Of a stretch of DNA of 64,000 nucleotides, positions 20,099-57,012 are shown in pieces. Origin of the DNA: an uncultured Candidatus Saccharibacteria bacterium (GTDB lineage: Bacteria > Patescibacteriota > Dojkabacteria > J137); NCBI GenBank assembly GCA_964393185.1, contig CAYMSO010000007.1, positions 930 through 64,929 of the forward strand, given 5' to 3'. The notes under the pieces were generated by a model. The model was not told the DNA's origin. It saw only the letters and a program-made list of their open reading frames with translations, and searched no databases. The position numbers were made by a program, and so were the translations under genes. Every line of letters begins with the position of its first letter. Position 1 is the first letter of the stretch.

Positions 20099-20104
20099 AT
20101 TTGT

Positions 20105-22781: not shown

Positions 22782-23276
22782 TTAAAGTTTGAATTGCAAA
22801 CTTTCAGCTCTACAGAAATCCCAAACACCCATACAACGTATATTCAGTTCAGTACATAAATTTGGAAGGCGGGGTATATTTAGTGATGAGTTCGCTGGAT
22901 TATTCTCAGTGGTAAAAACTACTAATTGGTTTGCTTTAGAGTAACAAGCGATAACCGGATCTGCAGCATTCTTATGCCCTGAAGCCAAAAGGTTATATTT
23001 ATTTACAAGCTTCTCTATTTCAGTTGAGGTGACATCATCGACTTCTAAAAAGATTTTTTTGTTGTCCTTTAACCATTCTTTAAATGATTTATCCTCTTGT
23101 TCTTCTTTCATGAGTTCTTCATAAACGTCAATGACTGAAACCATTCTGCCACTGTTAACAAGCACGTTAAAGTGTTCCCAGAGTCCAGGTAAAATATCTT
23201 TCGGGAAGCGACCTTTCTCTTCCTTCCAGAGATCAAAAATTACATTTGTATCAAAACAATACTTATAATCAGCCAT
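22782..23276 (-). CDS. DUF4411 (PIN-like) protein
   Basis: YCFDTNVIFDLW... AADPVIACYSKANQLVVFTTE ... IPRLPNLCTELNIRC follows the DUF4411 pattern (Y.lDtN... aDpfvIA.A...vVT.E...kIP.vC...gi.c). Confidence 0.6.
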   Translation of the reverse strand: MADYKYCFDTNVIFDLWKEEKGRFPKDILPGLWEHFNVLVNSGRMVSVIDVYEELMKEEQEDKSFKEWLKDNKKIFLEVDDVTSTEIEKLVNKYNLLASGHKNAADPVIACYSKANQLVVFTTENNPANSSLNIPRLPNLCTELNIRCMGVWDFCRAESLQFKL

Positions 23277-29235: not shown

Positions 29236-29240
29236 AGCAT

Positions 29241-29313
29241 GCATTCGTAGCTCAGTGGATAGAGCAACCGCCTTCTAAGCGGTAGGTCGGACGTTCGAAT
29301 CGTCCCGAGTGTA
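29241..29313 (+). tRNA. tRNA-Arg (anticodon TCT), second isodecoder
   Basis: Manual fold: gcattcg-ta-gctc-agtggat-agagc-a-accgc-CT[TCT]AA-gcggt-aggtc-ggacg-ttcgaat-cgtcc-cgagtgt-a. It sits 5 nt after the argS stop and 9 nt before the gmhA ATG. Confidence 0.9.
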
Positions 29314-29322
29314 TTTATAAAA

Positions 29323-35005: not shown

Positions 35006-35977
35006 CTAGGGACCATACTTCTTCCTAATCTCGTTAACTACATTCACTACCTCATCTGGGTTTTCTACACGCATAATCATCTCTCTAGCATCGCTTGCAC
35101 CTTCGAATTCCGAAAGATAAATTTTAAAGAATCTTCTTAAAATCACAAATTTTTTTGTATTACCCCAGATTTCTATAAACAAATGAAAATGCCTCAACAA
35201 CAAATCACATTTTTCCGAAACACTCAAATCTTTGATTGATCTATTTGGATTAAAAACAAAGGGATCCTTAAAAACCCCACGACCAATCATTAATCCATCT
35301 ACGCCTGTTTGATTGTATTTTCTTTCAACATCTTCTAAATCTGCAACATCACCGTTACCTATAATAATTGTTTCTAGCTTCTTTTTATTTCTTATATCTA
35401 CAACTTTTTTAATTTCGTCCCAGTCGGCGGGGAACTTGGACATATCTTTAGCAAGTCTTCCATGCACTGTCAAAGCCTGAATATCTTGGTCAAGCAAAAA
35501 ACCACACCATTCTTCAGTTTTCTTTATTTTGTATCCTAAACGTGTTTTAACACTCAGCGGAATCTTGCCACCAATACCTTCCTGAGTAGCTTTTATAATT
35601 TCTGCAGCAAGATCTGGATAATCAATTAATCTTGAACATGCAATTTGTTTGGTTATTTTTTTGACTGGGCAACCCATGTTAATATCGATTCCATCAAATC
35701 CCATTTCTACTATCTGTTTTGCGGCTTTGTAAAAGTTATCAGGTTTGTTACCCCAGATTTGCGCAACAATTGGTGATTCTTCGCTTTTTTTTATTAATCT
35801 ATGTGCTACACGTTCTTTGCCTGCAGAAAGGAATCCGTCTGTACTCATAAATTCGGTAAAAAATACATCCGGGCGACCACATTCAGCCACAACTTGCCTA
35901 AAAACCACATCAGTCACATCTTCCATTGGAGCTAATACAGTAAAAGGTTTTTTTAGTTCTTTCCAAAAATTTTTCAC
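35006..35977 (-). CDS. dus: tRNA-dihydrouridine synthase
   Basis: LAPMEDVTDVVFRQ, GFDGIDINMGCPVKK, and a TIM-barrel Dus pattern. Confidence 0.85.
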   Translation of the reverse strand: MKNFWKELKKPFTVLAPMEDVTDVVFRQVVAECGRPDVFFTEFMSTDGFLSAGKERVAHRLIKKSEESPIVAQIWGNKPDNFYKAAKQIVEMGFDGIDINMGCPVKKITKQIACSRLIDYPDLAAEIIKATQEGIGGKIPLSVKTRLGYKIKKTEEWCGFLLDQDIQALTVHGRLAKDMSKFPADWDEIKKVVDIRNKKKLETIIIGNGDVADLEDVERKYNQTGVDGLMIGRGVFKDPFVFNPNRSIKDLSVSEKCDLLLRHFHLFIEIWGNTKKFVILRRFFKIYLSEFEGASDAREMIMRVENPDEVVNVVNEIRKKYGP

Positions 35978-36031: not shown

Positions 36032-36439
36032 CTAGACTTTACTTAAAGAATCCAGTTTGAATTTTTCGTAACGGAGGATTTTTTCTAGTGCTATAAGCTC
36101 GGCAGGAGGGATATCTGGTTCGGATAATTTTTGTTTTGCAAGATTTAGCGCGTTTTCCACTTCCTCTTTTATAATTGCAGAACTTTCTATTGCCTCGTCG
36201 GCTAAAATAAGTATATTGTTATTATTTACATTAATAACTCCCGAGCGTACAAAAATAGTGATAGCTTGCTGTTTTTGGTTTTCAAATTGGATAATTAATC
36301 TCCCAGGTTCTAAAGTCGAAATTAAATTTTGGTGTTCGGGCAATACTTGTATTTGCCCTGTAGTAGTTGTTAATGTGATTTTGACTGCACCTTCGGCATC
36401 AACTAACTTTTGTTTTTGAGTTAAGACTTGTATGTTCAC
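36032..36439 (-). CDS. atpC: F0F1 ATP synthase subunit epsilon
   Basis: 135 aa. TTTTGQIQVLPEHQNLISTLEPGRLII fits the epsilon beta-sandwich. Last gene of the atp operon. Confidence 0.8.
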   Translation of the reverse strand: MNIQVLTQKQKLVDAEGAVKITLTTTTGQIQVLPEHQNLISTLEPGRLIIQFENQKQQAITIFVRSGVINVNNNNILILADEAIESSAIIKEEVENALNLAKQKLSEPDIPPAELIALEKILRYEKFKLDSLSKV

Positions 36440-38706
<2,267 letters not shown>

Positions 38707-38722
38707 GTCAAATTTTTAAAAT

Positions 38723-40198
38723 TTATAATTTTGCGTGTCTGGATTTATGTTTCTTTGTTACTTGATTTAAGAACTCCCGCAATTTAAATTCCTTGTCTTC
38801 TCCAATTTTTTGAGTTGGATCTAAACTTAATAATTCTTCTTGTTCAGCAAGCTCTTTTCTCAGCAACGATATCCAGTCTGGAATTTCTTTATGTGGTATA
38901 TCTGTAAGGACTCCAGTATTTAAAGCATACAAAATGCTTACCATTTCTATCAATGTATAAGGTTCATTTTCTGGTTGCTTTAATATCTCCATAGACAAAG
39001 CTCCTTTGTCTAATCTTTCTTGAGTAGAAGAATCCAAATCTGTTCCAAACTGAGCAAATGCTGCGAGTTCCCTATACTGAGCAAGGTCAAGCTTTAACTG
39101 TCCAGCTACTTGCTTCATAATTTTTGTTTGTGCAGCTCCACCAACTCTAGACACAGAGTTTCCTACATTGACTGCAGGTCTCTGCCCTGAATTAAATAAA
39201 GTCGCATCTAAAAAGATCTGCCCATCTGTTATAGAAATAATATTTGTTGGAATATAGGCAGCTATATCTCCGGCTTGAGTTTCTATAATAGGAAGTGCGG
39301 TTAAAGAACCTCCTTTGTTCTCCCTGCTATATTGTAGTGCACGTTCAAGTAATCTTGAGTGTAAGTAGAAAATATCCCCGGGATATGCATCTCTACCCGA
39401 AGGTCTACCTAAAAGTAAAGAAATTTCTCTGTATGCTTGAGCATGCTTACTTAAATCATCGTATATAACTAATGCATCTTTACCATTTTCTGCAAAATAT
39501 TCACCAATTGCTGTGCCAGTAAATGCAGCTATGTATTGCATTGCGGCGCTGGAGCTTACTGGAGCAGAAATTATCACACTTGTGTTTAAAGCGCCCTGTT
39601 GTTCTAATCGCTTTATAAGCTGAGACAATTTAGAAACTTTTTGCCCAATAGAAATATAAATAGAAATACAGTTTTTATCTTTCAGATTAATCATTGTATC
39701 GATTGCAATGGAAGTTTTGCCTGTTTGTCTATCTCCAATAATAAGTTGTCTCTGACCTCTTCCTATTGGTATTAATGCATCTATGGCTAGTATGCCTGTT
39801 TCTAATGACCTTTGAACATCATCTCTTTCTATAACGCCAGCAGCTATTTTTTCTAGTGGCATTTCTACAATTTTACTTGTTTGGCTAAATATTGGACCTT
39901 TTCCATCCAATGGATTGCCTAAAGCATCTATTACCCGACCTAAATAATCTTCGCTTACTTTAAGAGACAATACTTTACCGGTTGATTTAATCTGATCTCC
40001 TGCTTTAATTTTTGCAAAATCTCCAAGTGTTATGATTCCAACAAAATCCTCCGAAATTTCTACAACTAGTCCGGGTATAGATTCAAAATTAGAGGTATAA
40101 ATTTCGACTAATTCATTCATACCTACGCCATCTAAATTTTGAACTAACAAAATACCATCTTTTACACTTAATATTGTTCCAATGTGTGTCTTAGTCAT
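38723..40198 (-). CDS. atpA: F0F1 ATP synthase subunit alpha (short N-terminus)
   Basis: GDRQTGKTSIA Walker A and a canonical alpha core. Only 5 residues precede the beta-barrel motif IGTILSVKDGILLVQNL. An in-frame stop 3 codons upstream rules out a longer N-terminus. Confidence 0.95.
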   Translation of the reverse strand: MTKTHIGTILSVKDGILLVQNLDGVGMNELVEIYTSNFESIPGLVVEISEDFVGIITLGDFAKIKAGDQIKSTGKVLSLKVSEDYLGRVIDALGNPLDGKGPIFSQTSKIVEMPLEKIAAGVIERDDVQRSLETGILAIDALIPIGRGQRQLIIGDRQTGKTSIAIDTMINLKDKNCISIYISIGQKVSKLSQLIKRLEQQGALNTSVIISAPVSSSAAMQYIAAFTGTAIGEYFAENGKDALVIYDDLSKHAQAYREISLLLGRPSGRDAYPGDIFYLHSRLLERALQYSRENKGGSLTALPIIETQAGDIAAYIPTNIISITDGQIFLDATLFNSGQRPAVNVGNSVSRVGGAAQTKIMKQVAGQLKLDLAQYRELAAFAQFGTDLDSSTQERLDKGALSMEILKQPENEPYTLIEMVSILYALNTGVLTDIPHKEIPDWISLLRKELAEQEELLSLDPTQKIGEDKEFKLREFLNQVTKKHKSRHAKL

Positions 40199-40691
40199 TT
40201 CTAAAACTTAAAGATAATTTATCTAAAGCTTCTTTTACTTTAATTGGATCGACGGACTTAATATCTTGGTCAAAAACTTCCGAAAGCATAAATATAACGC
40301 CCGCACGAACATCCTTCTCGTATTGATCTTTTAATTTTGAAAGCATCTGCTCCTGAGCAATCTTGGCTTCTTTCAAAATTGAATCAGCCTTTTTTTCTGC
40401 TTGTGTAATAATTTCGTCTGCCTTATTCTTGCTCTGTTCTAATAGCTCTTTAGATTCAGTTCTTGCTTGATTTTGGGCCTTTTTTAATTGCTCGTTTACT
40501 TTACTTTCCAAAGCAACTTTGGCTTCTTCAGCTTCTGACTTAAGTTTGCTAATATTTTGAATTTCTTTCTGCCTAGCTGCTAAAGTTTTTCTTAAACTTG
40601 GTAAAAACTTTTTATCTATTACTATGTATAAAATTGTAAACAATATTACATAAATAATAATACTGTTAAGATTGATTCCTAAAGCTTCCAT
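40191..40691 (-). CDS. atpF: F0F1 ATP synthase subunit b
   Basis: A single N-terminal TM followed by a long charged helix. 166 aa, positioned between atpE and atpA. Confidence 0.75.
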   Translation of the reverse strand: MEALGINLNSIIIYVILFTILYIVIDKKFLPSLRKTLAARQKEIQNISKLKSEAEEAKVALESKVNEQLKKAQNQARTESKELLEQSKNKADEIITQAEKKADSILKEAKIAQEQMLSKLKDQYEKDVRAGVIFMLSEVFDQDIKSVDPIKVKEALDKLSLSFRND

Positions 40692-40694
40692 TGT

Positions 40695-40931
<237 letters not shown>

Positions 40932-40951
40932 TTAGTTAATTTATTAAATAA

Positions 40952-41821
40952 TTAATGACTCTCCATTGCCAAGCTTAAAAAAACAGCTGTAAGCATAAAG
41001 AATACAAAAGCTTGAATTGCTCCGACAAAAATTTCTAGACCTAAAAATGGCAAGGTAGCCACACCAAATGTAAGAGCTGTAAGTACACTCAACAATACTT
41101 CGCCTGCAAAAATATTGCCAAATAAACGGAAAGCAAACGAAATTATCTTTCCGATTTCTGATATTAACTCAAGAATTCCAACTATTGCACTAATGCCGCT
41201 AGAAAAATCTATGTACCTTTTTAAAAACATTGGTCCTCGCACTACAATTCCCACAGCATTTGTTACAACTACAGAGATTATTGCCAATGCTATAGTCATA
41301 GACAAATCTGCACTTGGAGCCCTAAATATTGGAGCAAAACTTTCGTTTTCTATAATTCCTTTATTTGATAGTAAACAACTTCCACTTACTAAACACAAGA
41401 TATTTTTATCTGTTTCTATTTCTGCTTTATTTGTAGATTCCTTAGCTTTTAGTATTTCTATAAATTCGATGTTATTAATTTTTTGCGGATCTTCTACAAT
41501 TCCTATTCCAGGTACAATTGGCAGTAAACCAGAGTAGTTAGAGGCTAAAATAAAAACAAAAAAGGTGAGCAAGAAACCAAAATATTTATGTACATGCTTT
41601 TCTCCAAGTATATCTTTTGCCATTCCCCAAAGAACTTCGTATATAACTTCAATCATTAACTGTAGTTTGCCTGGATTAAAGCTACTTAATCTGTAAGATC
41701 CTACTACCAAAAAAAAGGTTAAAAAAATGGCTGTTACAACAGCCATTATCATAGAATTAGTTATTGCTATTCCACTTATATCAAAAATCGTTTCTGGGAC
41801 AAAAGAAATATGTATATCCAT
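40952..41821 (-). CDS. atpB: F0F1 ATP synthase subunit a
   Basis: Polytopic membrane protein. FRLFGNIFAGE contains the conserved Arg motif of subunit a. Confidence 0.85.
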   Translation of the reverse strand: MDIHISFVPETIFDISGIAITNSMIMAVVTAIFLTFFLVVGSYRLSSFNPGKLQLMIEVIYEVLWGMAKDILGEKHVHKYFGFLLTFFVFILASNYSGLLPIVPGIGIVEDPQKINNIEFIEILKAKESTNKAEIETDKNILCLVSGSCLLSNKGIIENESFAPIFRAPSADLSMTIALAIISVVVTNAVGIVVRGPMFLKRYIDFSSGISAIVGILELISEIGKIISFAFRLFGNIFAGEVLLSVLTALTFGVATLPFLGLEIFVGAIQAFVFFMLTAVFLSLAMESH

Positions 41822-44163: not shown

Positions 44164-47100
44164 ATGAAAATCATCAAAAAGCAAGTTCGAAAGATCTCAC
44201 TTGTTAAGATGTCTGCAATCTACTTTTCTACTTTTTTGGCATTTTCTCCACTAACTGCAACTTTTGCTCAAATCTCTGCCAATGTTAACAACTATGATTT
44301 TGAAGTAAGAGAATTTAATACTGAAACACTCGAGCCAAATCAAGAAGTTGAAATCCCAATCAAAATTGACAATTTGGGAACACAGAGTTGGTATAAAGAT
44401 GATCTTTCTGGTACGCCCAAAATACAGTTAAGCTATAAAATAACAGATAGTGCAAACAATATTGTAGAAGGCGAAAAAACTGATTTACTCGCAGATGTAC
44501 TTGATATAAGCGCTGCACCAAACAATATTTTAGATGCAAATCAAAAATTAAAAATTAAAGCACCTGATTTGGAAGGGAGTTACTCTTTAGAGGTAATGCT
44601 TTTTGACAACGAAAAACAAATATTAATAGAATCTTCTAATAAAGAAAAGAATATATTTAATTTACTAGTTGAAATTCCCCTAACCCCAGATATAACTAGT
44701 CCAACTGGAGCATTAGAAATTATAAAAGTAATTCCAGATTCACTTCCAGAAACTGAAACTATAGGTACAAATATAAATATTAAATTAACTGCAAATGATC
44801 CTCAGGTAGATGGAGCTTTAACATCGGGTATTTCAGAATATATATTGTCTGATTCTTCAGTTTTTGCAAATTCTGAGTGGCTATCTTGGAGCCAATCTAC
44901 TGAGTTAGTTATAAATAGAACACTACAAAATATTCCTGGTGAACATTCATTCTATGTAAAATTTAAAGATGCAGTGGGTAATATATCTCAAATATATTCT
45001 GATACAATAAATTTTGTATCCACAGCTCCGATAGGAAGTATAGAAGTAGACAAGGATGAATTAGTAAATGTTTCTAATGATTCCACTCCTCAACTCCAAG
45101 TCCAGGATAACAATTTAAAAATTTACCTTAACGCTACAAGCAATGTAGGAGTTTCGGAATATAAATTAGCTTACACAGATCAAATTCTATCTTCTAATAG
45201 CGAAATTGAACAATTTTTGAATAACCATAGTTGGAATGCTTTTACAAATACCACACTAAGTTCACAACAGGAGGTTAAAGACCTTGTGCTAACTGACGAG
45301 ACCGGAAGCTATTATTTTTTTGTTAAGTATAAAAACTTACAAGGTCAAGAATCAGAAATTTATTCTACAAGCATTAATTATCAAAAATACAATATTACAC
45401 CAGAACTTACTGCATCCTCACAACAAGCACTTTTTGCAGGAGATATGGAATTTTCGGCAACTATAAAAAATAGTGGGGAAGATATAGGTTACAACGCAAG
45501 AATAGAAGTTGTTCTTCCTAAGGGATTCAGTTTTATAGAACCAATGTCTGCGAATGGTAAGGCAGCCATTATACCTACATTTATTTCTACGAACCAAGCA
45601 GGAAATCAAATTTTAGTTTACCAAGGGGTTGCTGATTTGTTGACTGGAGAATCTGTAACCATTAACTCGAAAATAAAAGTAGGTGGACAGAATGACGGTT
45701 ATAAGATAGGAGATATAGTTCCAATCCAAGTAAAAGGCCAGTTATTTAAAAGATCGAATTTTATTACAGGATTCGAAACAAATGTAATAGCACAAGTTGA
45801 GTTAAAACCCTTTATTGTAAATTACAATGAACAAGGTAACCAAGAACACCTTGTTGGAGATATTGTAGATAATAATGTAGAAATTAGAACAAACGAAGAA
45901 ATTCCTTCGGATGAATCTCAAAATGAGTTAGATCCGATAGAGGCAAGCCCACTAGTTGTCGAATTTGAACTAACAAATGGCGTAAATTATGTAGATGGCT
46001 CTCAACAAGTATTAATAAACGGCGTGCCCGCAGCTGTTGCTTTCCAAATTGTCGAAATGATTAACAGCAATCCTATTTTAGTTTGGATGTTAGGACAAGT
46101 TGATGTTAACACAGTAATACAGATTTTCTTTCAAACAGAAATAGAAAAAATAGAAAGTCAGGACGAAATAAGCACTGATTTTGTAGATCACAACGAAGAA
46201 CTAAATAATAATTTATTAGTATCGGGAGATTATACTAATCCATGCAGTGTTGCCGATTTACTAGCTGATAATTGTGAAGAATCGAAAGAATACTCAGAAA
46301 TAATAGGAAATAACATTACTGCAAAATACTTTGATGTACAAAAATGGTCAAATATAGATAGTGAAGAATTAGAACCTAATAGCATAATCACATATACAAT
46401 AAGAATTGAAACTAGTAAATATTACGATTTAACGGGAATAGAAATTATTGATTTATTGCCGGATGGAGTTAGCTTTGATCCAAACCAAAGTAATTTACAA
46501 TTTAATAATGACATACAACTAGATTTATTTGACGTAAGTCAAGACACATTAACAGGGGAAACAAAATTAGTCTGGAGAATAAACAATCAATCAGGAATAG
46601 AAGCAGGTACAGTATACCAATTTAGCTACGATGTGCGAGTCAATCAGAATTATACAAATAAAAATGATAATGGTGATTACAGAATAGTATCAGACGATAT
46701 CCTAACGAGTTTAGTAACAGTTAGAGGCGTTTGGTCAGATATAAATAACACTATAAGAGAAGAAACAGTTGAAGAACGAATTAAAGAAGAAACTGCTACG
46801 ACAAATGATAGTTTAAGTGAACCTAAATTCGAAAAAGGTATCAAATTAGCAAATACTCAAGATGACTATTCCGATAATGTAATGGCTCGAATCGGAGATA
46901 AATTCGATATTTATACACTAATTACTTTTCCAGAAAACACACCTACAAAAGATTTTAACTTTAGAACATATTTACCAGTCGGTACAAAACTTGTAGAAGA
47001 CTCTTTGAATGTTACTCCTACTGGGACATTTTCTAAAGATCCAACGTATCAACAATCAATTGCTGGAGGGTATTTGTTTGATTTGGGCAAAGTAGAAGGA

Positions 47101-50100
47101 GGTAGCACTTTTAGAATAGATTATCAGATTGAAGTGTTAGATGATGCTAATTTAAAAGAAGCAGTTATTGTAAGGAACCTTTTTAGAGTTGACTATAAAA
47201 ATATAGTAGACTCTAAGTTTACTTTTAGAGATGAAGTTACACTAAATTTAATAGAGCCTATTATACAAGTTAGAAAAAGGATAGTTGATGGTTATCTAGC
47301 TCGAGGCGAAATTTCTACTGTTGAATTAAGAATCAAAAATACGGGGCATGACTCTGCTTATAATTTAAACTTAAAAGATACTATTCCTAACAATACTGTA
47401 CTCATTAATGTTAATAATCAGTTTTCTATTATTAGCAATCTAGGCAATACATTCAATGTAGTTTATAACGATAATACGCAAGAATTTGAGATGAGTAATT
47501 TTGATCTGTTGCCAAGCGAGCAAATTATTATAAATTATCAAATTCTAACAAATGAGCAGGTTATTTTTGGAGACAAGATCAATAGCATAGTCACCGTATC
47601 AGAATATTCTAATAGGCCTGAAGAAGATACATTAATAGCTCGAAACTATCCGGCAAAAACTTATAACTTTAACTGGAAAGCAGCTGAACCATTATTAATA
47701 ACTGATTTAAATATTAATCCGCAAATTAATACCGGACTAAATGTAACTAGGGATCAACAATTTAAATTGAAAGCAATAGTTAAGACAGTAGGAAAAGCAC
47801 CAGTTTACAATACATCAATACAAGTTGACGTAAGCTTTTTAACAAAATTTGCAGAAGATATTAATAGTATTCCTTTTAAATTGTACTTAGACGAAGTAGA
47901 AACTCTAGATTATGAATTTTCTGTTTCTGAAGGCGTTTACATTTTTGAAGGAATAAATTTAGGACCAAACAGTACATTCCAAATTGATTTTGATTTAACA
48001 GTTCCTGAATTTGCAGATTTTGATAGCGAATATCTAGTTTCTATTTCCGCCATTGGTAAGGACAAATTGGGAAATAATATAAGAAAAGATGGTTCTAACG
48101 AAACAAACACCGATACGGACTCCGATGATAGAACAGAAGAAAATATTAAAATAGTTCGCCTCTCTCCAAGTGACATAAGAGGAGAAATAACTTTCCAAAT
48201 TGCCGGGCAATCAGCTAATATTACTAATCAAAGTTCAGTAGATACTGTTACATATCAATTAGAATCTCAAAACAAAATAGTTGGAGTAAGATTTTCGAAT
48301 GATGGCATTAATTGGTACACGCACGATGCACTAGATTTACTAGACAATGCAACTTTACAAGCTCTTGGAATAGAAGGAAATTGGAATGTTTGGAATCAGT
48401 CAAATACCTTTGTAGATGATTGTGTAAGCAGTTTGAACGCATGTACTTTGAGCATAGAAGGAAATAATTATAAATTTGTAGAAGTTGTAGACTTACAAAA
48501 CTATACAACAATTGTAGAGGGCAAAATTATAAAAGATACTACAGCACCAGCATTTCTTAATTTAAGTATTAGCCCTTTTGAAGGAGATTTAACCAATCCA
48601 GAATATACTGCGCTTCAAGATAATTACCTAAACTTTTATGCGTACGATACTTGTGTAGATGATGGATTACCACTAGCATGCGCGGGCATAGCTGAATTTT
48701 CTTACTCGACTGATAATCAAAACTGGTCCGAATGGCTACCTGCTCAAAACGGGTTGAACAGTTACTTGGTAAGTTATCCTGTAATTGGAAATGGACAAAG
48801 TTATTTTGGCTATTTAAAAGTAAGAGATGCAGTGGGAAATGAATATCTAAGGCAAACAAGCGCTTTAGATCCTTATACGGATTTAGAACTGCAGAGTAAC
48901 ATTGTTGCAGACTCAATCAAATATACAAACAACATTCCACAGGTGACTTTAAATTTAAACAAAGGAGCAGAGTATACTGCTGACTCTTTAGTTGAACTTG
49001 GATTAGAAATTATCCAAACACCAGCAGGAATACAGCAAATCCGTTACCACTACTCACAAAATGAATTTGACATAAATGCAGAATGGTTTGAGTACGTTTA
49101 TTCTCAAAATTTAAATAGGTCTTTGAATAATACAATGGAGGATGGTGTAAAGGAGATTTGCGTTCAAGTTATGGATAATGCTGGTGCAGTTTCGAACATC
49201 GCATGCGACTCAATTATTCTTGATAATTCAGCACCTACTGGATTCTTAGTTATTAATAATGGAGAAGCTGATACGGAGCATAGAGATATAGTATTAAATA
49301 TAGCGGCATCAGATCCTAATTTATTTGATGGTACGTTAGGAGTCTGGGGTCTTCAAATGCAGTTTTCGAAAACAGGAGAAGATTGTGCATTAATAATAAA
49401 CACTGCAGAAAAAGCTAAGTGCGATTTGGCATGGACAAGCTGGGAAAACTATTCCTCAACAAAAAATTGGGCTCTGGAAGATTTAATCGGTGATCAAAGA
49501 GTTTATCTAAGACTGAAAGACGCCTTAGGAAACTTGTCGAGTATCATATCTTCTCATATTTCTTACAATCCTATTAAAGGTAGCGGAAACATTATCATTA
49601 ACAATAACGATGCCTTTACAAATTCGAAGTATGTTAACTTGGATTTGACATTTAATATGTCCGAATTCAACTGCAATTTGTGCACTAGACCAGCATTGAT
49701 GAGATTTTACGAATCAAGCTCACTACCAGACAGCACGTTACCAGTTGCACCAGGAATAAATCCAACTGAATCAGAACTGAATGGCTGGACAAATTGGCAG
49801 GAATATTCTTCTGCTTTGCAATGGGACATAGATAAAAATAATGTTTCGTATCCTAACTTCGGCTATAAAACGGTTTATGTTCAGTATCTGCTACCAAATA
49901 CAACTTTGACCGATGTTTACTATGATTCTATTATTTATGCACCATATTACTCAATAGATTATTACAAGATTGATGGCACAGGCATAAATATTTCTAATAC
50001 AGCAACCAAAGATAATTTTGTAAAATACTCTACTTATCAACTAGATTTGTTACCAAGCGAAGTACTAAGCCAGGAATCTTTCAATATTAATTTTAATGCC

Positions 50101-53100
50101 AAAAATACTGGTTCTTTTACATGGCCTGCTGTAGAAACCGATACGAATAAACCTGTAAGAATTACATATATCTGGAAAAGAACAGGAGGTGAACTACCAG
50201 AAGGCTGGACTTTGGATTTGGTACCTACCGAAATAAGAGGCAACTCAGTCATCTTACCAGAAGACATAAGCTGGCAAGAACAGCTACAAAATATAACCCT
50301 AAAAGTTAACACGCCAATATTCCCTGGAGAATACGAGTTATTAATAGATGCTGTGCACGAAAGTACTGCCTGGTTTAGAGACTGGGGAAATTTTGCTCCG
50401 AAATATGATATTAATGTATTGTCTAATCCAGATAAACCATTAAGTCCCCCAGATTTTGGAGATGTAATGGGAGAAACAGATGCAATTGGAGGGCCCATAC
50501 CTGTACCATATAACATAGACAGTGATGGTTGGATTGATAACTGTGAAGACTACAGTTGGGATGGCTTACGGTTTAGTGGTAGAAACTGTGGCATACATGG
50601 TATATGGCAAGCACCTAGAGATACTGGTTACCATGCAATTTGTGAACCTATCAATGGCGGGCATTATGAATACGAAATCGTCACAGAAAATGACCGAGTA
50701 TTTTTCTTCTGCCCAGGCAATACACAATATTGGGATACACAAGTTGGTTCACAAGTTGGTGTAGAAGTCCATTGGAATACAAGATCAGAAAACTCTCTAG
50801 GTGGATTCAGAATAATTGAATTCTTCCCTGTTAGAAAAACTTGGGATTCAAGATTTGAAGAACAATACAATGATGCAAAACTTTACCAAACAATTCCAGT
50901 CAATAGAAGTCAACCTGCTTCGGAGTATAAATTTACAATTCAACCAAGATTTTTTAATGCAGGCACAGCTATATGGACTAATACTAACATTGAATTAGTA
51001 GCTATAAATAAGCCATTAGAGCAGGGCGGAGTGGAAGTAGCTTCGCCATTTTATGATCCAGCTACCTGGCGAACTCCAAGTCGCTTAAGAGTTAACAATA
51101 ATGCTAGTGGTTATGGCAGGGGGTCTGTTGCTGCGTTTACTTTTGATATTAGAGTGCCCGAGTCAATGCCTTATGGTTTATACAAACAATGCTTTGTAAT
51201 GACCAATGATCCGTGGATTCCATTCGAAAGACGTGATAGTTTCTGCATTACAATGGATGTTCAGATGACTCAAAAAGAGCAAGGAGAATATTCTTGTCCC
51301 TTACCTCATCCAGTTTATAAAGATATGTCTACCGCCTCCGAAATAATCGGATATATACAACAAAATACACAATTTATTATTAAAGGTAGAGAACCAGGCT
51401 GGTCATTAATTATATTTCCTACTGGTGATCACCAAGAAGGATGGGTGGAAGACAATGCCTCGTGTTTTACAAACATTGTAATCATAGATAATGTGATTCC
51501 TACCCCAGTATTTGACATACTGCCCCAACCAACTGGAGATACAGGAATAGTAATAAGATTTGACGGAGTTATAGTTAGAACAGGTCCAGACGACAGATTT
51601 ACACCTATTACTGATTTAGATTATGGGGATCAAGTACAGGTCATTGGGGAAGCATTTATTGATGATAATAATTATGGAGGATGGTTACTTGTAAGACTAC
51701 CCGACGGTACAGAAGGTTGGGTGCCAAAAGGTACTATTGCTCATGTTAACGATCCACCCGATATTCAGGTCAGCTTAGTCCCCGATATGGTTAGAGTGCA
51801 TATTTGCGGTACAAATGACATCCCTGTTTATCCTGCGCCAGGTGTCAAATCTTATACTGTAGGAACTCTCAAGCCAGGGCAAAATATTGGAATTATTATG
51901 AAATGGCAAAACTGGTTTCAGGTTTACTTAAATAAAAACGGAGATACTGGCTGGGTCGAAAATTTACAAGGTATGTGTGAAGGATTTGTATATCCTAAAG
52001 GAGAGAATTATTGTGGCGGTGCTTTAGGTTATCCATACGAAAGAGATTATGGAATCTCGAACTACGGAGACTACGGCATGAGACCTTCTGGATTCCACGA
52101 CGCAGTCGATATTCCAGCTCCATATGGCACACCCGTACTGGCTGTTGAGTATGGAATAGTCAAGTTGTCGCAAAGGGATGGCCGTTGTTCAGATAATATG
52201 TACGGAGCTGGAATTTATGTTGACATTTATCACCCAAGATTGAATTTGACTACCCGATACCTACATTTAAGCGAAAAAAATGTGAACGTTGGAGATGAGG
52301 TATTCAAAGGCATGATTATAGGCAAAACTGGTAATACAGGCTGTGTAGTTCCAAGACCAACCGCTTCGAATCCACTTGGGGGTACACATTTACATTTTAG
52401 GGTATTTGATCATAGCAAGAACTCTACAATTGATCCAAAATCCACTTGGGTTGGGGGAAATAATAGTTGTGAGGTAGGAGAAAACGATCAGACAAGTAAA
52501 AGATCACGAGTAGAAGAATTAATTAGACAACAAGAACAAGAGTGGGCAAATAGTGGAAGCTATACAGAAATGCCAGATTGGAGGGGCCAATTGCATCTAT
52601 GGTCTAGCGAATGTAAAGTATGGGTAAAAGATTACCAAGATATTAAATCTGGCGATATTGATGTGAGAGATGAATGGACAAACGGCCAATCTGGAGGAGC
52701 TCTTATATATAACCACCTTGCTGATGAAATATACTTGGTTGCAAATGGCATGTGGCTAGAATATATTGAACATGGTGGCCCCTGTGGTAAACCAGGATTG
52801 CCTATCGACACAAATGGAAAAAACATTGAACAATGGTCATATGCAACTGATCGAAGTGTAAATAATGGTATAGAAAGGGAATCAGCCAGATATCAAAGAT
52901 TTCAGAATGGAACTTTATATTGGTATTGGTACATTAATACAGAAACTGCAAAATCCTTTGCTGTACTAGAAAAAATTTTTACAAAGTATAAAAGTCTAGG
53001 TGAGTGGTTCAGTCATTATGGTTATCCAATATCTGAAGAATACGAAGGAGGTTGCCAGTTATTTGAATTTGATTCTATTTGTAGAAAGGACAACTCATTA

Positions 53101-54219
53101 GAATTAAGTGAATGTATAGTAAATGGATCATGTAAAATAGACCAGCTATATACAAATAACGAACCTACACTGGAAAACTTAATTCAAGCAATAAAAATAC
53201 TAGAAACTTACTATGACAACGCAACGATAACTGGCTTGTTATTTAGATATATTTTCGAACCAGAAGGAGTATTTGATGCTTCCGCACCTGACACAATTAT
53301 ATATAAACGTGGAAACGAATTACCTAAATGTAATATATATAATTGTGAAAACATAATTATGCAAACACTTGGCTATATATCTTATTTATCCAAATGTGAC
53401 ACCTTAGAAGAAGCAAAAAATGGAGCAGGAAACGGATGTGATGGCAAGGATGGCGGAAATTATACAAACCTAAACTATGTTTCAGGTTCAATTGAGCCAT
53501 CTCACCTATTTGCTGGAATATCTGAACAATATTTTGAAGCTGTAGATCCAAAGTTTAAATATGGATCACTATACCTAGGTAAAGAGCTAGATAAATCTGC
53601 CAGAACTTATATAGGTGATTTAGGAGGAGTAGTACAGAAGTCTATGCGTGACCAAAATATGACATGGGTAAATTCATCTGATGAATTTAAACAATACTCA
53701 TCTAACTTCAAGGTTATTGAAAATAGAACTTATGAAGGTCTGATCCTTAAAGCTGATCTTGATACTGATATAGATTCTTATATGATTAACAATATTCTTA
53801 GTTCAAACAAAAATATGAATCTCTCTCAGTCGCTAATCAATTATTATTTATCTAATGAATCTACTAGAAATAAACGATATACTTTGTTTGCTGAACAAAC
53901 TTTGGGCTATGTTTACCCTAATTCGGTGAGTACAAATCAACTCAAAGAAATTGCTGCTCAAAGCGAAATATTTGCTATTATGTTTGATTACTATTCTTTT
54001 CCACGAAGCTGTATATTAGGTACTGGTATAGAATGTGCTGCATTCTATTTTTTAATAGAAGACGATGATTTTATATATAGTATAATGTATACAGGTGTAC
54101 TTGAAAGCGGTATATTTTATGACTTGATTGCAAATGAAATTATGTATGAGAAAGGTCTCAGAACTACCCGATATAGCAAGAACGATATGCATGAGCTGTT
54201 AGTAACTCTACAAAAGTAA
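44164..54219 (+). CDS. giant secreted multidomain surface protein (3351 aa) with DUF11-type repeats, Ig/NBR1-like modules, 3x SH3b, M23 peptidase and LGFP-like repeats
   Basis: Signal peptide ending TATFAQ. DUF11-like ITYTIRIETSKYYDLTGIEIIDLLPDGVSFD (~46.38 kb). SH3b-like modules at ~51.30-51.97 kb. M23 motifs FHDAVD (52.09 kb) and GGTHLHFRVF (52.38 kb). LGFP-like RYQRFQNGTLYWY / YGYPISEEYEGG (~52.65-53.08 kb). Confidence 0.85.
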   Translation: MKIIKKQVRKISLVKMSAIYFSTFLAFSPLTATFAQISANVNNYDFEVREFNTETLEPNQEVEIPIKIDNLGTQSWYKDDLSGTPKIQLSYKITDSANNIVEGEKTDLLADVLDISAAPNNILDANQKLKIKAPDLEGSYSLEVMLFDNEKQILIESSNKEKNIFNLLVEIPLTPDITSPTGALEIIKVIPDSLPETETIGTNINIKLTANDPQVDGALTSGISEYILSDSSVFANSEWLSWSQSTELVINRTLQNIPGEHSFYVKFKDAVGNISQIYSDTINFVSTAPIGSIEVDKDELVNVSNDSTPQLQVQDNNLKIYLNATSNVGVSEYKLAYTDQILSSNSEIEQFLNNHSWNAFTNTTLSSQQEVKDLVLTDETGSYYFFVKYKNLQGQESEIYSTSINYQKYNITPELTASSQQALFAGDMEFSATIKNSGEDIGYNARIEVVLPKGFSFIEPMSANGKAAIIPTFISTNQAGNQILVYQGVADLLTGESVTINSKIKVGGQNDGYKIGDIVPIQVKGQLFKRSNFITGFETNVIAQVELKPFIVNYNEQGNQEHLVGDIVDNNVEIRTNEEIPSDESQNELDPIEASPLVVEFELTNGVNYVDGSQQVLINGVPAAVAFQIVEMINSNPILVWMLGQVDVNTVIQIFFQTEIEKIESQDEISTDFVDHNEELNNNLLVSGDYTNPCSVADLLADNCEESKEYSEIIGNNITAKYFDVQKWSNIDSEELEPNSIITYTIRIETSKYYDLTGIEIIDLLPDGVSFDPNQSNLQFNNDIQLDLFDVSQDTLTGETKLVWRINNQSGIEAGTVYQFSYDVRVNQNYTNKNDNGDYRIVSDDILTSLVTVRGVWSDINNTIREETVEERIKEETATTNDSLSEPKFEKGIKLANTQDDYSDNVMARIGDKFDIYTLITFPENTPTKDFNFRTYLPVGTKLVEDSLNVTPTGTFSKDPTYQQSIAGGYLFDLGKVEGGSTFRIDYQIEVLDDANLKEAVIVRNLFRVDYKNIVDSKFTFRDEVTLNLIEPIIQVRKRIVDGYLARGEISTVELRIKNTGHDSAYNLNLKDTIPNNTVLINVNNQFSIISNLGNTFNVVYNDNTQEFEMSNFDLLPSEQIIINYQILTNEQVIFGDKINSIVTVSEYSNRPEEDTLIARNYPAKTYNFNWKAAEPLLITDLNINPQINTGLNVTRDQQFKLKAIVKTVGKAPVYNTSIQVDVSFLTKFAEDINSIPFKLYLDEVETLDYEFSVSEGVYIFEGINLGPNSTFQIDFDLTVPEFADFDSEYLVSISAIGKDKLGNNIRKDGSNETNTDTDSDDRTEENIKIVRLSPSDIRGEITFQIAGQSANITNQSSVDTVTYQLESQNKIVGVRFSNDGINWYTHDALDLLDNATLQALGIEGNWNVWNQSNTFVDDCVSSLNACTLSIEGNNYKFVEVVDLQNYTTIVEGKIIKDTTAPAFLNLSISPFEGDLTNPEYTALQDNYLNFYAYDTCVDDGLPLACAGIAEFSYSTDNQNWSEWLPAQNGLNSYLVSYPVIGNGQSYFGYLKVRDAVGNEYLRQTSALDPYTDLELQSNIVADSIKYTNNIPQVTLNLNKGAEYTADSLVELGLEIIQTPAGIQQIRYHYSQNEFDINAEWFEYVYSQNLNRSLNNTMEDGVKEICVQVMDNAGAVSNIACDSIILDNSAPTGFLVINNGEADTEHRDIVLNIAASDPNLFDGTLGVWGLQMQFSKTGEDCALIINTAEKAKCDLAWTSWENYSSTKNWALEDLIGDQRVYLRLKDALGNLSSIISSHISYNPIKGSGNIIINNNDAFTNSKYVNLDLTFNMSEFNCNLCTRPALMRFYESSSLPDSTLPVAPGINPTESELNGWTNWQEYSSALQWDIDKNNVSYPNFGYKTVYVQYLLPNTTLTDVYYDSIIYAPYYSIDYYKIDGTGINISNTATKDNFVKYSTYQLDLLPSEVLSQESFNINFNAKNTGSFTWPAVETDTNKPVRITYIWKRTGGELPEGWTLDLVPTEIRGNSVILPEDISWQEQLQNITLKVNTPIFPGEYELLIDAVHESTAWFRDWGNFAPKYDINVLSNPDKPLSPPDFGDVMGETDAIGGPIPVPYNIDSDGWIDNCEDYSWDGLRFSGRNCGIHGIWQAPRDTGYHAICEPINGGHYEYEIVTENDRVFFFCPGNTQYWDTQVGSQVGVEVHWNTRSENSLGGFRIIEFFPVRKTWDSRFEEQYNDAKLYQTIPVNRSQPASEYKFTIQPRFFNAGTAIWTNTNIELVAINKPLEQGGVEVASPFYDPATWRTPSRLRVNNNASGYGRGSVAAFTFDIRVPESMPYGLYKQCFVMTNDPWIPFERRDSFCITMDVQMTQKEQGEYSCPLPHPVYKDMSTASEIIGYIQQNTQFIIKGREPGWSLIIFPTGDHQEGWVEDNASCFTNIVIIDNVIPTPVFDILPQPTGDTGIVIRFDGVIVRTGPDDRFTPITDLDYGDQVQVIGEAFIDDNNYGGWLLVRLPDGTEGWVPKGTIAHVNDPPDIQVSLVPDMVRVHICGTNDIPVYPAPGVKSYTVGTLKPGQNIGIIMKWQNWFQVYLNKNGDTGWVENLQGMCEGFVYPKGENYCGGALGYPYERDYGISNYGDYGMRPSGFHDAVDIPAPYGTPVLAVEYGIVKLSQRDGRCSDNMYGAGIYVDIYHPRLNLTTRYLHLSEKNVNVGDEVFKGMIIGKTGNTGCVVPRPTASNPLGGTHLHFRVFDHSKNSTIDPKSTWVGGNNSCEVGENDQTSKRSRVEELIRQQEQEWANSGSYTEMPDWRGQLHLWSSECKVWVKDYQDIKSGDIDVRDEWTNGQSGGALIYNHLADEIYLVANGMWLEYIEHGGPCGKPGLPIDTNGKNIEQWSYATDRSVNNGIERESARYQRFQNGTLYWYWYINTETAKSFAVLEKIFTKYKSLGEWFSHYGYPISEEYEGGCQLFEFDSICRKDNSLELSECIVNGSCKIDQLYTNNEPTLENLIQAIKILETYYDNATITGLLFRYIFEPEGVFDASAPDTIIYKRGNELPKCNIYNCENIIMQTLGYISYLSKCDTLEEAKNGAGNGCDGKDGGNYTNLNYVSGSIEPSHLFAGISEQYFEAVDPKFKYGSLYLGKELDKSARTYIGDLGGVVQKSMRDQNMTWVNSSDEFKQYSSNFKVIENRTYEGLILKADLDTDIDSYMINNILSSNKNMNLSQSLINYYLSNESTRNKRYTLFAEQTLGYVYPNSVSTNQLKEIAAQSEIFAIMFDYYSFPRSCILGTGIECAAFYFLIEDDDFIYSIMYTGVLESGIFYDLIANEIMYEKGLRTTRYSKNDMHELLVTLQK

Positions 54220-54220: not shown

Positions 54221-55261
54221 ATGAATATTATAACTCAGAATTTCTCTAGTAAGAAAATATCAATAATTTTACTGTCAATAGTTTTATTGTCACTTGTTAG
54301 TTATCTTACTTACAAAGCTTATATAGATACAAACTCTAAGAAAGAATTAGATATAGAATGTAAATTACAAAAAAATACTAACAATGACTTCATTTACGAT
54401 GCAGTGTTTGATGGTGTTAATAAGTTACTGCTCTTTGATAATAGTAATAAATTTGAAATTCTTTTGAACGACACTGGTTATTCTATAGCAAATCAAGCAA
54501 ACTCAGATTACTTTGGTCAGAACTACTTTGATAATACAAAATCGATAATTGCTTGTAGAGAAAATATCTACTACTTAGATAATGAAAATATAATGCTATT
54601 GTTAAGTGGCAAAGACACTCTTGTAGGATCATACATTGATTCTTATAAGCTAAATAAGGATTCTAGTTATATTGCAATTGAAACAATTCAAGATGAAATT
54701 ATTATTATAGACATTCAATCCAATAAAATAATTGCTAGATTAGGCAATACATTGTCTTCCAATCACTACGACTTTGATAATGATAGTAATCTTCTAATCG
54801 GTTATTCTGAAAAAATAGTAAGATACAATATTAATGACAAATCTTACCAAGATATTGTTTTACCTGAAGATATAGCAAATAATTACTTTTCATTTGACAT
54901 AAGCAATGAATCTAATTTGATAAGCTTTGCAATGCGAGATAAGATAACGACATATAAATTAGATACTATGATACTTTTAAACGAGCTCAAAACTAAGTAC
55001 ACTCCAAGCTTTTTGAAAATAGTATCCAAAAATCAATTAATTTATAAGGACATAGATACTAGTAGTAAATATTACCTGCTGAATTTAGATACTGGCGAAA
55101 ATACTTTAATATCTAAGGGTGAGGAGATAGTGTTTAATTCTCAGATGGACAAAGTAGCAATACTTGAACCAGTTGCAGTAGGAAACATGACAAATGTAAA
55201 TGTATATAATATCAAAGAAGAAAAACTGATTGCTGTCATATATTCAATAGATTTAAAATAG
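54221..55261 (+). CDS. N-terminally anchored hypothetical protein
   Basis: 346 aa, with a TM anchor (ISIILLSIVLLSLVSYLTY). Starts 2 nt after the giant gene's stop. The repetitive beta-rich sequence may be a propeller. Confidence 0.5.
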   Translation: MNIITQNFSSKKISIILLSIVLLSLVSYLTYKAYIDTNSKKELDIECKLQKNTNNDFIYDAVFDGVNKLLLFDNSNKFEILLNDTGYSIANQANSDYFGQNYFDNTKSIIACRENIYYLDNENIMLLLSGKDTLVGSYIDSYKLNKDSSYIAIETIQDEIIIIDIQSNKIIARLGNTLSSNHYDFDNDSNLLIGYSEKIVRYNINDKSYQDIVLPEDIANNYFSFDISNESNLISFAMRDKITTYKLDTMILLNELKTKYTPSFLKIVSKNQLIYKDIDTSSKYYLLNLDTGENTLISKGEEIVFNSQMDKVAILEPVAVGNMTNVNVYNIKEEKLIAVIYSIDLK

Positions 55262-55285
55262 TATTCACTTTGACTTGATTCATAT

Positions 55286-55657
55286 ATGAAAACAAAACTA
55301 CAACTTGGGCTAATATTAGCTATTCCAATATTAATTTTTAGCTACCTAATAGTCAAAGTACCAACAATTCAAATACCAGAAGATTATTACACAAACTCAA
55401 CTGACTATTCTGAAAATAAATTGCCAATAGTGTACGAATACTACTTATCGTTTTCCTTTGTCAAAATCAATAAATGTGATGTAATTTGTCCTAATGAAAG
55501 AGGCTTTCCTTTTACAATTAGTTACCAGGCAGAACATGACGAGTTTAGATTAATTGGCTTAATTGCTAATAGTGCACTTTCACTAATGGCCGGGATTTCA
55601 TTATCTAGCTTGATATTACTAGTAAAAGATAAAAGATTCCGTGCGAAATTTAATTAA
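55286..55657 (+). CDS. small membrane protein
   Basis: 123 aa, with N- and C-terminal TM helices. Confidence 0.4.
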   Translation: MKTKLQLGLILAIPILIFSYLIVKVPTIQIPEDYYTNSTDYSENKLPIVYEYYLSFSFVKINKCDVICPNERGFPFTISYQAEHDEFRLIGLIANSALSLMAGISLSSLILLVKDKRFRAKFN

Positions 55658-55684
55658 TGAGTTTGATTTTTATTAAGTTCACTA

Positions 55685-56317
55685 ATGAAAAAATATCAAC
55701 TATTTACTACCATTATCCTAACAATAATTATACTTTCAGGTCTATATTTAGTACTAAACCAGAATCAGTTAGAAAATTCAGAAAAATCAAAAGACTTTCA
55801 GGAAGAAGATCAATCGCAAATAGATGATTCACAGTCCGAAATCACTATTACCTCTGTAGAAACACTAAGAGACAAAGTAGTGAACGACCTAGAACTTCCC
55901 GCAACATGGCAAACCTATCCAGAAGATTTAGGAATGGAAGGGTTTATCAAAGAAGATAATTACTACACATTCAATAAAGATGAGTGTACAAAATCTCAGT
56001 GGGAAGAAAATGATATGTGTAAATACTTTGATGCAAATTTTACCTATCCAATATTAAGTCAATCTAAATCAACTGCAGCCTTTATTTCTATTCATCAAAT
56101 ATCAGATCCACAAAAATCACAGGAATTTTTAGAACTGTATAAAAATGATATTGATAAAAATCCTGACTGTACAGGTGGAGTCGTAATGGACGAGACTAAC
56201 ACCTATTTTGTAAATATCAACATCGCTGAGGGAAACAATGCAGACGATATCTATGTTATTCTAGAGGAAATAAAGAAACTAACTAACTTTAATCTATTAT
56301 ATTCATGTCAAAACTAA
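55685..56317 (+). CDS. N-terminally anchored hypothetical protein
   Basis: 210 aa, with a TM anchor (LFTTIILTIIILSGLYLVL) followed by an acidic linker. Confidence 0.45.
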   Translation: MKKYQLFTTIILTIIILSGLYLVLNQNQLENSEKSKDFQEEDQSQIDDSQSEITITSVETLRDKVVNDLELPATWQTYPEDLGMEGFIKEDNYYTFNKDECTKSQWEENDMCKYFDANFTYPILSQSKSTAAFISIHQISDPQKSQEFLELYKNDIDKNPDCTGGVVMDETNTYFVNINIAEGNNADDIYVILEEIKKLTNFNLLYSCQN

Positions 56318-57012
56318 ACACTAACTCCGCAAAAAGAAAAAAGTTAGCATTTGCACTTATACTTATAATAATTTTTTTAATCTTTCTTGCATTAATATTA
56401 AAAAAGCCAAACCAGGAAGAAGTTAAAGGATTTGGCGATGAACTTTATCAGGATGGTGATGAAATTCCAGAAACTCCACAAGAATTTGCAGTAGGAAGCA
56501 ATGACTATATTGCTCCTTCAGGAGAAAAAATTTTTACAATTAATTATCAAAACAGAGTATCTAATAACGAGCTTATAATTCAAGCAACTAGTTTTATTCA
56601 AAAAGGTGTAGCATATGCAAAATGGAGCAATGACAGTCAATTTATAATTTTCTCCTTAGCAGAAGAAGATGCTTCTAATCCTGAAAATTCAGATGAACCA
56701 GTAGTAGACGATGCAGGAAATATTTGGATTGTAGATTCTACTGGACAAAATAAAAGACAAATTATTGACTTGGCAGAAGCTACAATAGTTGATTTTGTTT
56801 CCAACGGATCTAAAATAGCATTCACAACTAATACAAAAGTTGGTATTGTAAATTTAGATGGCACAGACTTAAGATACGTCTACGAGTACACTTTGCCAGA
56901 GACAGAATCAGATTCACACTACATCCCAACAATACAGATTGTAAACACAAAGTTTAAGGTAGAAATAAAAAATGCAGATGATAGTACTACCTCTCTCACA
57001 TTTGACTTTTAG
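56305..57012 (+). CDS. N-terminally anchored protein with PD40/TolB-like beta-propeller repeats
   Basis: TM anchor. WSNDSQFIIFS..., DDAGNIWIVDSTGQNKRQII and GSKIAFTTNTKVGIVNLDGTDLRYV resemble PD40 repeats. Overlaps the upstream gene by 13 nt. Confidence 0.5.
   Translation: MSKLNTNSAKRKKLAFALILIIIFLIFLALILKKPNQEEVKGFGDELYQDGDEIPETPQEFAVGSNDYIAPSGEKIFTINYQNRVSNNELIIQATSFIQKGVAYAKWSNDSQFIIFSLAEEDASNPENSDEPVVDDAGNIWIVDSTGQNKRQIIDLAEATIVDFVSNGSKIAFTTNTKVGIVNLDGTDLRYVYEYTLPETESDSHYIPTIQIVNTKFKVEIKNADDSTTSLTFDF

Follow-up and report, generated by a model that had tools for sequence, protein, structure and literature searches.

The 64,000-nt stretch of contig CAYMSO010000007.1 analysed here (the window, in whose numbering all positions are given unless a locus is named) carries a giant gene at 44164..54219 (+) that starts with ATG and encodes 3351 amino acids (aa) plus a stop codon. 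On balance, and with modest confidence, we favour the reading that its product is a fibre, exported by the Sec pathway, which brings a lytic, toxin-like cassette to the wall of a neighbouring cell. The working end would lie at the C-terminus, where three SH3b modules, an M23 metallopeptidase and about two LGFP-like repeats are followed by a rare all-α domain, probably of effector type, which we call the orphan domain. The remainder of the chain is a long stalk of β-sandwich modules behind a signal-peptide-like N-terminus. An earlier note on this DNA, made from the sequence alone, had listed an architecture of this kind, and full-length homologues conserve the domain order that it gave. How uncultured episymbiotic and predatory bacteria breach the walls of other cells is poorly understood, and the published candidates list giant proteins and hydrolases separately.

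The M23 metallopeptidase occupies residues 2616–2790 (52009..52533, +). Its core, residues 2644–2756 (nt 52093–52431), matches Peptidase_M23 (PF01551) with 62.3 bits against a Pfam gathering threshold (GA) of 28.7 and an E value of 5e-17. The motifs FHDAVD (HxxxD), YLHLS (YxHLS) and THLHF (HxH) align to those of zoocin A, lysostaphin and the Peptidase M23 chain 6jmx, which bears out the earlier assignment of an M23 enzyme with both zinc motifs. The zinc-ligand and catalytic-His motifs are moreover invariant in 10 related M23 domains, so the enzyme looks catalytically competent, and the domain is apparently an active peptidoglycan endopeptidase. The best matches among PDB sequences are zoocin A and lysostaphin. 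The nearest NCBIfam matches are the housekeeping endopeptidases MepM, ShyA and Pgp3, every one of them far under its cutoff.

Wall-binding modules flank the enzyme on both sides. N-terminal to it, residues 2376–2615 (51289..52008, +) hold three SH3b modules of the SH3_3 family (PF08239), identified with Pfam and hhalign. SH3_3 matches in three stretches, as had been predicted, with 72.5–81.6 bits summed and 26.9, 47.3 and 23.6 bits singly against a GA of 27; the first and third modules are related to each other with an hhalign probability of 89%. C-terminal to the enzyme, residues 2791–2975 (52534..53088, +) contain LGFP-like wall-binding repeats, about two units, placed by Pfam LGFP and the family alignment. 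The LGFP profile (PF08310) scores 16.6 bits on the whole protein, 21.3–21.8 bits on tiles and 25.6 bits on residues 2791–2975 alone, against a GA of 22, and at the equivalent positions of the homologues P0008 and P0013 and of locus L006 it scores 26–38 bits. The profile hidden Markov model detects one unit, and the second emerges from visual inspection and from alignment with P0013 and P0008. The LGFP-like repeats of the earlier note thus stand for one unit in the region-only scan, and the whole-protein score stays below threshold.

The orphan domain forms the C-terminus, residues 2976–3351 (about 376 aa; 53089..54216, +), and was delimited by homology to carriers of PF27189 (YkzU). An exhaustive phmmer search with residues 2960–3351 against 1.84 billion representative proteins found only 12 proteins, and a search with the 12-sequence profile returned P0014 as its sole hit. 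The carriers comprise wall proteins that bear M23 together with LGFP, SLH or SH3 domains, and WXG100 fusions. P0008 is a member of the giant family described below. P0010 (2402 aa) combines Ig domains, M23 and the orphan domain, P0011 (1737 aa) has M23 and SLH, P0012 is an N-terminally truncated fragment with M23 and the orphan domain, and P0013 has LGFP and the orphan domain. P0014 and P0016 begin with an N-terminal WXG100 domain, and the orphan domain follows it. The neighbours of P0016 are two small WXG100 genes, YukD, FHA proteins and two WXG100-Peptidase_C2 genes, in an arrangement that includes a YukD-FHA protein and a separate FHA protein; by its gene content the locus reads as a type VII secretion-like effector cluster. 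This locus, L010 (1103–11750 of JBGSMF010000454.1, GCA_041740315.1), has 46% G+C and also carries a β-helix protein, an IS66 transposase and a Ser/Thr kinase. Beside P0011, L012 1–2920 encodes a large wall hydrolase with Amidase_2, SpoIID and a faint match to the NBR1-type Ig family PF16158, and genes for type IV pilin-like (N_methyl) proteins lie close to P0011.

In precomputed annotation, PF27189 appears as an unmarked match in P0016, as a weak one in P0014 and P0011 and as a faint one in P0002, and the homology of the window protein to such carriers extends over phmmer E values of 1e-5 to 1e-74. The last ~376 aa have no match in searches of the local Pfam library (in which the PF27189 model is not included), NCBIfam or PDB sequences. 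The stretch of about 380 aa that the earlier note could place in no family therefore remains without a match in the local libraries, and it is shared with PF27189 carriers and WXG100 proteins. Conserved motifs across the domain are ILExYY, EPEG, (G)HVFAGLS, RTYIGDLGG, an Asp-rich DLDADIDSY and YY. An AlphaFold2 (AF2) model from the 12 sequences is all-α and confident, with a mean predicted local distance difference test score (pLDDT) of 79.8 and a predicted TM-score (pTM) of 0.84, and has no significant fold match in the PDB or in the viral database BFVD. A relation to the lipid II phosphatase TelC, suggested by the Asp-rich DLDTDIDS, was considered and rejected because a profile search of the PDB, which showed no resemblance to TelC at E values up to 10, gave only chance-level matches (E values of at least 0.28) and the best Foldseek hit had an E value of 0.88 and a TM-score below 0.2. 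We infer that the orphan domain is toxic or of effector type. A confident fold without a solved relative could define a new effector class and makes the domain a useful target for crystallography.

Homologues of the giant protein were sought among 5.8 billion clustered proteins and, separately, in one genome per GTDB species. Besides the window protein itself, which lies on an 88-kb NCBI contig, the first search yielded just four true relatives: P0002 (3425 aa, collinear over 99% of the window protein), P0003 (3224 aa), P0004 (3041 aa) and P0005 (1939 aa, spanning only the N-terminal ~2050 residues). All four are collinear with the window protein at 39–45% identity. P0008, found through its C-terminal domain, is a fifth relative. 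The GTDB scan added two members, at loci L005 and L006. One of the GTDB members lies on a 7.7-kb contig that consists almost entirely of the giant gene, in a metagenome-assembled genome (MAG) labelled Ignavibacteriaceae. The L006 member (9320–15949, 2209 aa) comes from a MAG with the label Candidatus Saccharibacteria, in which its contig measures 93 kb. The two taxonomic labels thus disagree, and it is the longer contig that carries the Saccharibacteria label. A scan of JGI metagenomes with family patterns found no relatives. A phage or mobile origin of the gene was rejected: IMG/VR viral contigs contain no relatives of the giant protein, and about 20 kb separate the gene from the closest integrase island.

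Comparison of the members shows that what follows the conserved stalk-SH3b-M23 part varies. The window protein, P0002 and P0008 end in LGFP repeats and the orphan domain, and P0004 ends in the orphan domain without the LGFP block. P0003 ends in an unrelated hydrophobic Gly/Ala-rich region. In L006, SH3_3 and M23 are followed by LGFP (38 bits) and then by Peptidase_C39_2, a papain-like family. A constant N-terminal part with variable C-terminal modules is thus found among the homologues, and this exchange of ends is the organization of polymorphic toxins.

In the mechanism that we propose as most likely, SH3b and LGFP would dock the fibre end onto peptidoglycan, M23 would cleave the peptide cross-links, and the terminal domain would then act on the exposed envelope of the neighbour, which may be a host, a prey or a competitor. 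The C-terminal payload would be exchangeable between family members in the style of polymorphic toxins, and the wall that is attacked would be a foreign one. A bolder version, which we put forward tentatively and consider doubtful as it stands, is that the orphan domain represents a new class of envelope-targeting antibacterial effector that reaches its target by two unrelated routes. One route would be fusion to WXG100 in type VII secretion. In the other, the domain would sit at the terminus of a Sec-exported fibre, about 60–80 nm long, that first breaches peptidoglycan by SH3b-guided M23 cleavage, a contact-dependent “harpoon” of an ultrasmall or episymbiotic bacterium. Three fragments, SH3b-M23, LGFP and the orphan domain, could be expressed for tests of target specificity and toxicity.

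The reading frame of the giant gene runs for 10,056 nt (44164..54219, +) without an internal stop, and its G+C content of 0.31–0.39 is consistent with the window mean of 0.334. A check of open reading frames (ORFs) and translations in the window agrees with the single uninterrupted 3351-aa ORF that had been reported. Residues 1–36 (44164..44271, +), which precede the first module at 44275, form a signal-peptide-like N-terminus by reading of the sequence, and this feature is kept in homologues. The N-terminal sequence MKIIKKQVRKISLVKMSAIYFSTFLAFSPLTATFAQ has a basic n-region, an h-region of moderate hydrophobicity and a TFA|Q site, the n/h/c layout of Sec signals, and the hydrophobicity of its h-region lies below that of a typical transmembrane anchor. 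The signal peptide proposed earlier is supported by this layout together with its conservation, and we call it signal-peptide-like; the protein is probably exported by the Sec pathway and extracellular. Pfam gives no WXG100 match in the giant protein and a Sec-type signal stands at its start, so it does not itself have the form of a WXG100 or LXG effector of a type VII secretion system (T7SS). Scans for promoters and terminators gave counts at or under the expectation from shuffled sequence. Two antisense ORFs inside the gene, 50037–50516 (−) and 48569–48916 (−), are probably not genes; the first seems conserved in tblastn because it lies opposite a conserved stretch of the giant gene.

Between the signal and the cassette, about 17 β-sandwich modules of NBR1-like, Ig-like and CLIPPER/DUF11 type make up a long acidic stalk of about 2300 residues, which would span roughly 60–80 nm if extended. 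The central CLIPPER/DUF11 region, about six modules at residues 411–1335 (45394..48168, +), was assigned with Pfam DUF11 and TIGR01451. DUF11/CLIPPER (PF01345) matches at least three tandem stretches at residues ~416–1130 with 28.4–35.8 bits against a GA of 24.6, and TIGR01451 matches with 39 bits against a cutoff of 24 (E = 5e-10), so that the DUF11 modules of the earlier note are confirmed by both libraries. Modules D1 and D5 of this region are related with an hhalign probability of 63%, and the region has no match among PDB sequences. Fibrillar adhesins are documented to use CLIPPER/DUF11 domains as stalk modules (PMC12617251), in agreement with the adhesin-like body proposed earlier; some DUF11 domains lack the Lys-Asn isopeptide bond, which goes with a catalytic Asp/Glu (PMC12617251).

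On either side of the CLIPPER region lie Ig-like modules of a second type, B1–B2 at residues 173–410 (44680..45393, +), which show a ...KD.xGN.S... motif, and B3–B7 at residues 1336–1930 (48169..49953, +). These seven modules of about 115 aa are mutually homologous, with probabilities of up to 99% in hhalign comparisons of family sub-alignments (99.0% for B1 and B2, 99.3% for B1 and B6, 74–99% among the B modules). Self-BLASTP of the giant protein at 1e-3 detected no internal repeats and is blind to the B modules, so their homology is visible only by profile-profile comparison; B6 scanned alone had no Pfam match. The seven B modules account for much of the stalk and were absent from the earlier list. 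Together with the CLIPPER modules they give the protein the repetitive stalk of fibrillar adhesins, and the motif and hydrophobicity scans found no recognised cell anchor of the kind that defines this class.

Three further β modules, N1–N3, and a Cys-containing linker complete the stalk. N1 (residues 38–172; 44275..44679, +) is NBR1/CARDB-like and may be a distal tip; its best Pfam match is CARDB with an E value of 0.13, below significance, and it is weakly related to N2 (hhalign 66%). N2 (residues 1931–2085; 49954..50418, +) is an NBR1-like β-sandwich according to Foldseek and a low-confidence AF2 model. That model covers residues 1931–2375 with a pLDDT of 55, with module cores at 70–85, and it matches human NBR1 (4OLE) with target TM-scores of 0.63–0.71 amid many generic Ig matches. 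The linker (residues 2086–2250; 50419..50913, +) is not confidently predicted in structure and contains four Cys residues, at 2127, 2142, 2160 and 2183, of which C2127 and C2142 are invariant across the family; the Cys-rich segment seen earlier is thus located and in part conserved. N3 (residues 2251–2375; 50914..51288, +) has predicted β strands and a core pLDDT of 65–85. None of N1, N2 and N3 has a significant Pfam match, the NBR1-like Ig family PF16158 included. An NBR1-like identity of the N modules is therefore plausible but not established: of the Ig/NBR1-like modules claimed before, what stands is a fold match to 4OLE from a low-confidence model, with no family match and a weak relation between N1 and N2.

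Downstream of the giant gene, four genes on the same strand (ds1–ds4, 54221–57012) all encode N-terminal membrane anchors. Intergenic spacers from the giant gene onward measure +1 to +27 nt, and ds3 shares 13 nt with ds4. The ds1 gene (54221..55261, +), which starts 2 nt past the end of the giant gene, encodes a transmembrane anchor at the N-terminus and a β-propeller-like body with weak WD40-type matches. Its one weak homologue lies downstream of P0002 (E = 6e-7), and ds1 may, speculatively, be a partner or immunity protein. The small membrane-anchored proteins ds3 and ds4 (55685..57012, +) are conserved neighbours of giant genes: ds3 resembles L003 13186–13842, and ds4 resembles L002 7567–8364, L003 15596–16276 and L009 18982–19755. 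As conserved neighbours in several independent loci, they may serve in anchoring, export or protection. In the window, L001, L007 and L008, the next gene encodes an extracytoplasmic membrane-anchored protein of 310–385 aa. In L007 and L008, where it follows the orphan-domain gene, its product, of about 310–320 aa, has a membrane or signal anchor and shows no homology to ds1 by BLASTP, phmmer or hhalign. An immunity function of the downstream gene is a conjecture.

Several observations weigh against the favoured reading of a lytic cassette delivered to a neighbour. M23 enzymes with SH3b modules are also ordinary autolysins. A scan of the giant protein for LPxTG, NPxTG, LAxTG and PEP-CTERM motifs found none, and the whole 3351-aa protein has no hydrophobic segment beyond its signal-like N-terminus. 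With no covalent or membrane anchor found, a tethered stalk is a conjecture and either end of the fibre may be the distal one; of the surface-tethered endopeptidase on a long stalk that the earlier note proposed, the stalk and the M23 enzyme stand, and any tethering would have to do without LPXTG, PEP-CTERM or an extra transmembrane segment. The precomputed annotation of the window's own protein (P0001) lacks PF27189, and no literature on YkzU or PF27189 was found. When the downstream genes were compared across loci by BLASTP, phmmer and hhalign, only those of the window and L001 proved related; since they are mostly non-homologous, an immunity gene is not established. The lack of other anchors is also a point in favour of a rival reading, a self-directed wall protein in which the C-terminal SH3b/LGFP/M23 cassette would bind the producer's own peptidoglycan and remodel it locally, as a non-covalent anchor or an autolysin, and the stalk with its N1 tip would face outward, as in a fibrillar adhesin or surface-layer fibre. 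We consider this unlikely, although it is the rival to be taken most seriously. Classical Gram-positive fibrillar adhesins have a C-terminal anchor and an N-terminal adhesive tip. Such an orientation would fit the stalk logic of these adhesins (PMC12617251), LGFP and SH3b are wall-binding modules, the nearest NCBIfam models (MepM, ShyA and Pgp3, far under cutoffs) are housekeeping endopeptidases, and small membrane-anchored proteins are the conserved gene neighbours. However, the terminal domain is common to WXG100 substrates in a T7SS-like cluster, and the end of the protein is swapped for enzymatic or hydrophobic ends, which is typical of antagonistic payloads rather than of anchors. The fully conserved catalytic centre is likewise something that an anchor could do without.

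A third possibility is that the protein is set free by the cell as a bacteriocin-like lysin comparable to lysostaphin or zoocin A, with a long body that would serve solubility, control of diffusion or multivalent target binding. The top PDB sequence matches are these two enzymes, and the giant protein combines a signal-peptide-like start with the absence of any retention motif in the scans; the two M23 bacteriocins themselves are, however, only a few hundred residues long at most in the PDB, and a 2300-residue CLIPPER/Ig stalk is a hallmark of surface fibres. This reading is accordingly improbable. That the gene is an artefact, whether of chimeric assembly, of a fused gene call or of pseudogene decay, has only the general risk of metagenome assemblies to recommend it and is so improbable as to be close to negligible. 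The frame is open over 10,056 nt, P0002 is collinear over 99%, the other members stem from Logan, ENA and NCBI assemblies that differ in sample and assembler, and the catalytic residues are conserved. Because independently assembled full-length homologues are collinear with it, the ORF is not a chimera, which the earlier note had named as one of the conditions that would overturn its reading.

The rest of the window is cellular DNA with 33% G+C and genetic code 11. Shine-Dalgarno motifs precede only 4 of 48 ORF starts in the window and 0–17% in the related loci L001–L009, and the leaders are A/T-rich. This scarcity suggests that the lineage initiates translation independently of Shine-Dalgarno motifs; as a hint to taxonomy it is not decisive, and the gene content of the window is not diagnostic. 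Clustering at 90% identity leaves arginyl-tRNA synthetase (ArgRS) and three further proteins of the window alone or almost alone. An epibiont lifestyle of the producer is a hypothesis. The giant gene is preceded by two DUF1706/DinB genes and an F-type ATP synthase operon (36032–41821, −) with genes for subunits a, b, α, γ and β and a presumed ε. This operon has no separate ORF for δ/OSCP between b (166 aa) and α, and the ORFs for b and α overlap. The Dus gene at 35006–35977 (−) is 52% identical to L009 593–1549; both lie 6–8 kb upstream of a giant gene, and the pair suggests that some synteny persists between genomes that carry the family.

The region 11264–24441, further upstream, is probably an integrated island of the defence or mobile type, with a tRNA-His, a large serine recombinase (11346–12818), an AAA_13 ATPase (15296–17539) and an IrrE/HTH pair (23269–24441). 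A type I restriction-modification system is also part of it, with the R subunit at 20105–22501 and the S and M subunits presumed at 17536–20098. A Ku gene (6716–7504, −) overlaps a LigD gene (4261–6726, −) with phosphoesterase, ligase and primase-polymerase domains, and the two form a complete bacterial non-homologous end-joining pair. Of two tRNA-Arg(TCT) genes, at 4063–4135 (−) and 29240–29314 (+), the second directly follows the ArgRS gene (27385–29235). A cohesin-domain protein (8707–9384, −) adjoins a protein with a sub-threshold CarboxypepD_reg-like domain (7590–8699, −), and both may be surface proteins.

The elements of the giant protein are individually known. With the CLIPPER-stalk fibrillar adhesins (PF01345; PMC12617251; PMC9210967) it shares a long secreted body of tandem CnaA-like/Ig-like β-sandwiches, here CLIPPER by profile. 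It differs from them in that no LPXTG, OmpA-like domain or transmembrane anchor is recognised, and in that its functional end is an enzyme cassette and not an adhesive domain of lectin or binding type. With lysostaphin, ALE-1, zoocin A and LytM it shares an M23 domain with HxxxD, HxH and a catalytic His together with wall-targeting modules. Unlike in the SH3b-targeted M23 lysins, three SH3_3 copies stand N-terminal to the enzyme and LGFP and a further domain follow it, and M23 chains in the PDB reach only a small fraction of the length of this protein.

Polymorphic toxin systems include LXG and WXG100 effectors of the T7SS, for example the Tel toxins of Streptococcus intermedius. The likeness lies in a constant delivery part with exchangeable C-terminal modules and, for the T7SS effectors, in the fusion of the orphan domain to WXG100 in a T7SS-like cluster. 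Delivery here would instead rely on a Sec signal and a giant stalk rather than on WXG100 or LXG, and no cognate immunity gene is demonstrated.

Giant surface proteins have been proposed to attach to other cells and degrade their walls in Vampirococcus lugosii, where wall hydrolases and giant proteins are described as separate genes (PMC8080830). The giant genes of Omnitrophota likewise encode very large surface proteins with proposed roles in attachment and wall degradation, in a preprint that mentions neither M23 nor SH3 (bioRxiv 10.1101/2023.11.21.568195). The present family is distinct from these giants and very small. The statement in the earlier note that the architecture is not known as characterised accordingly holds for the exact combination of domains, but not for giant surface proteins of epibiotic and predatory bacteria as such, which have been published. 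What is new is the fusion of these elements in one polypeptide and the rare orphan domain that it has in common with WXG100 effectors. The family thereby unites a giant surface protein and a wall hydrolase in a single chain, and its exchangeable terminal domain links it to the toxins of type VII secretion.

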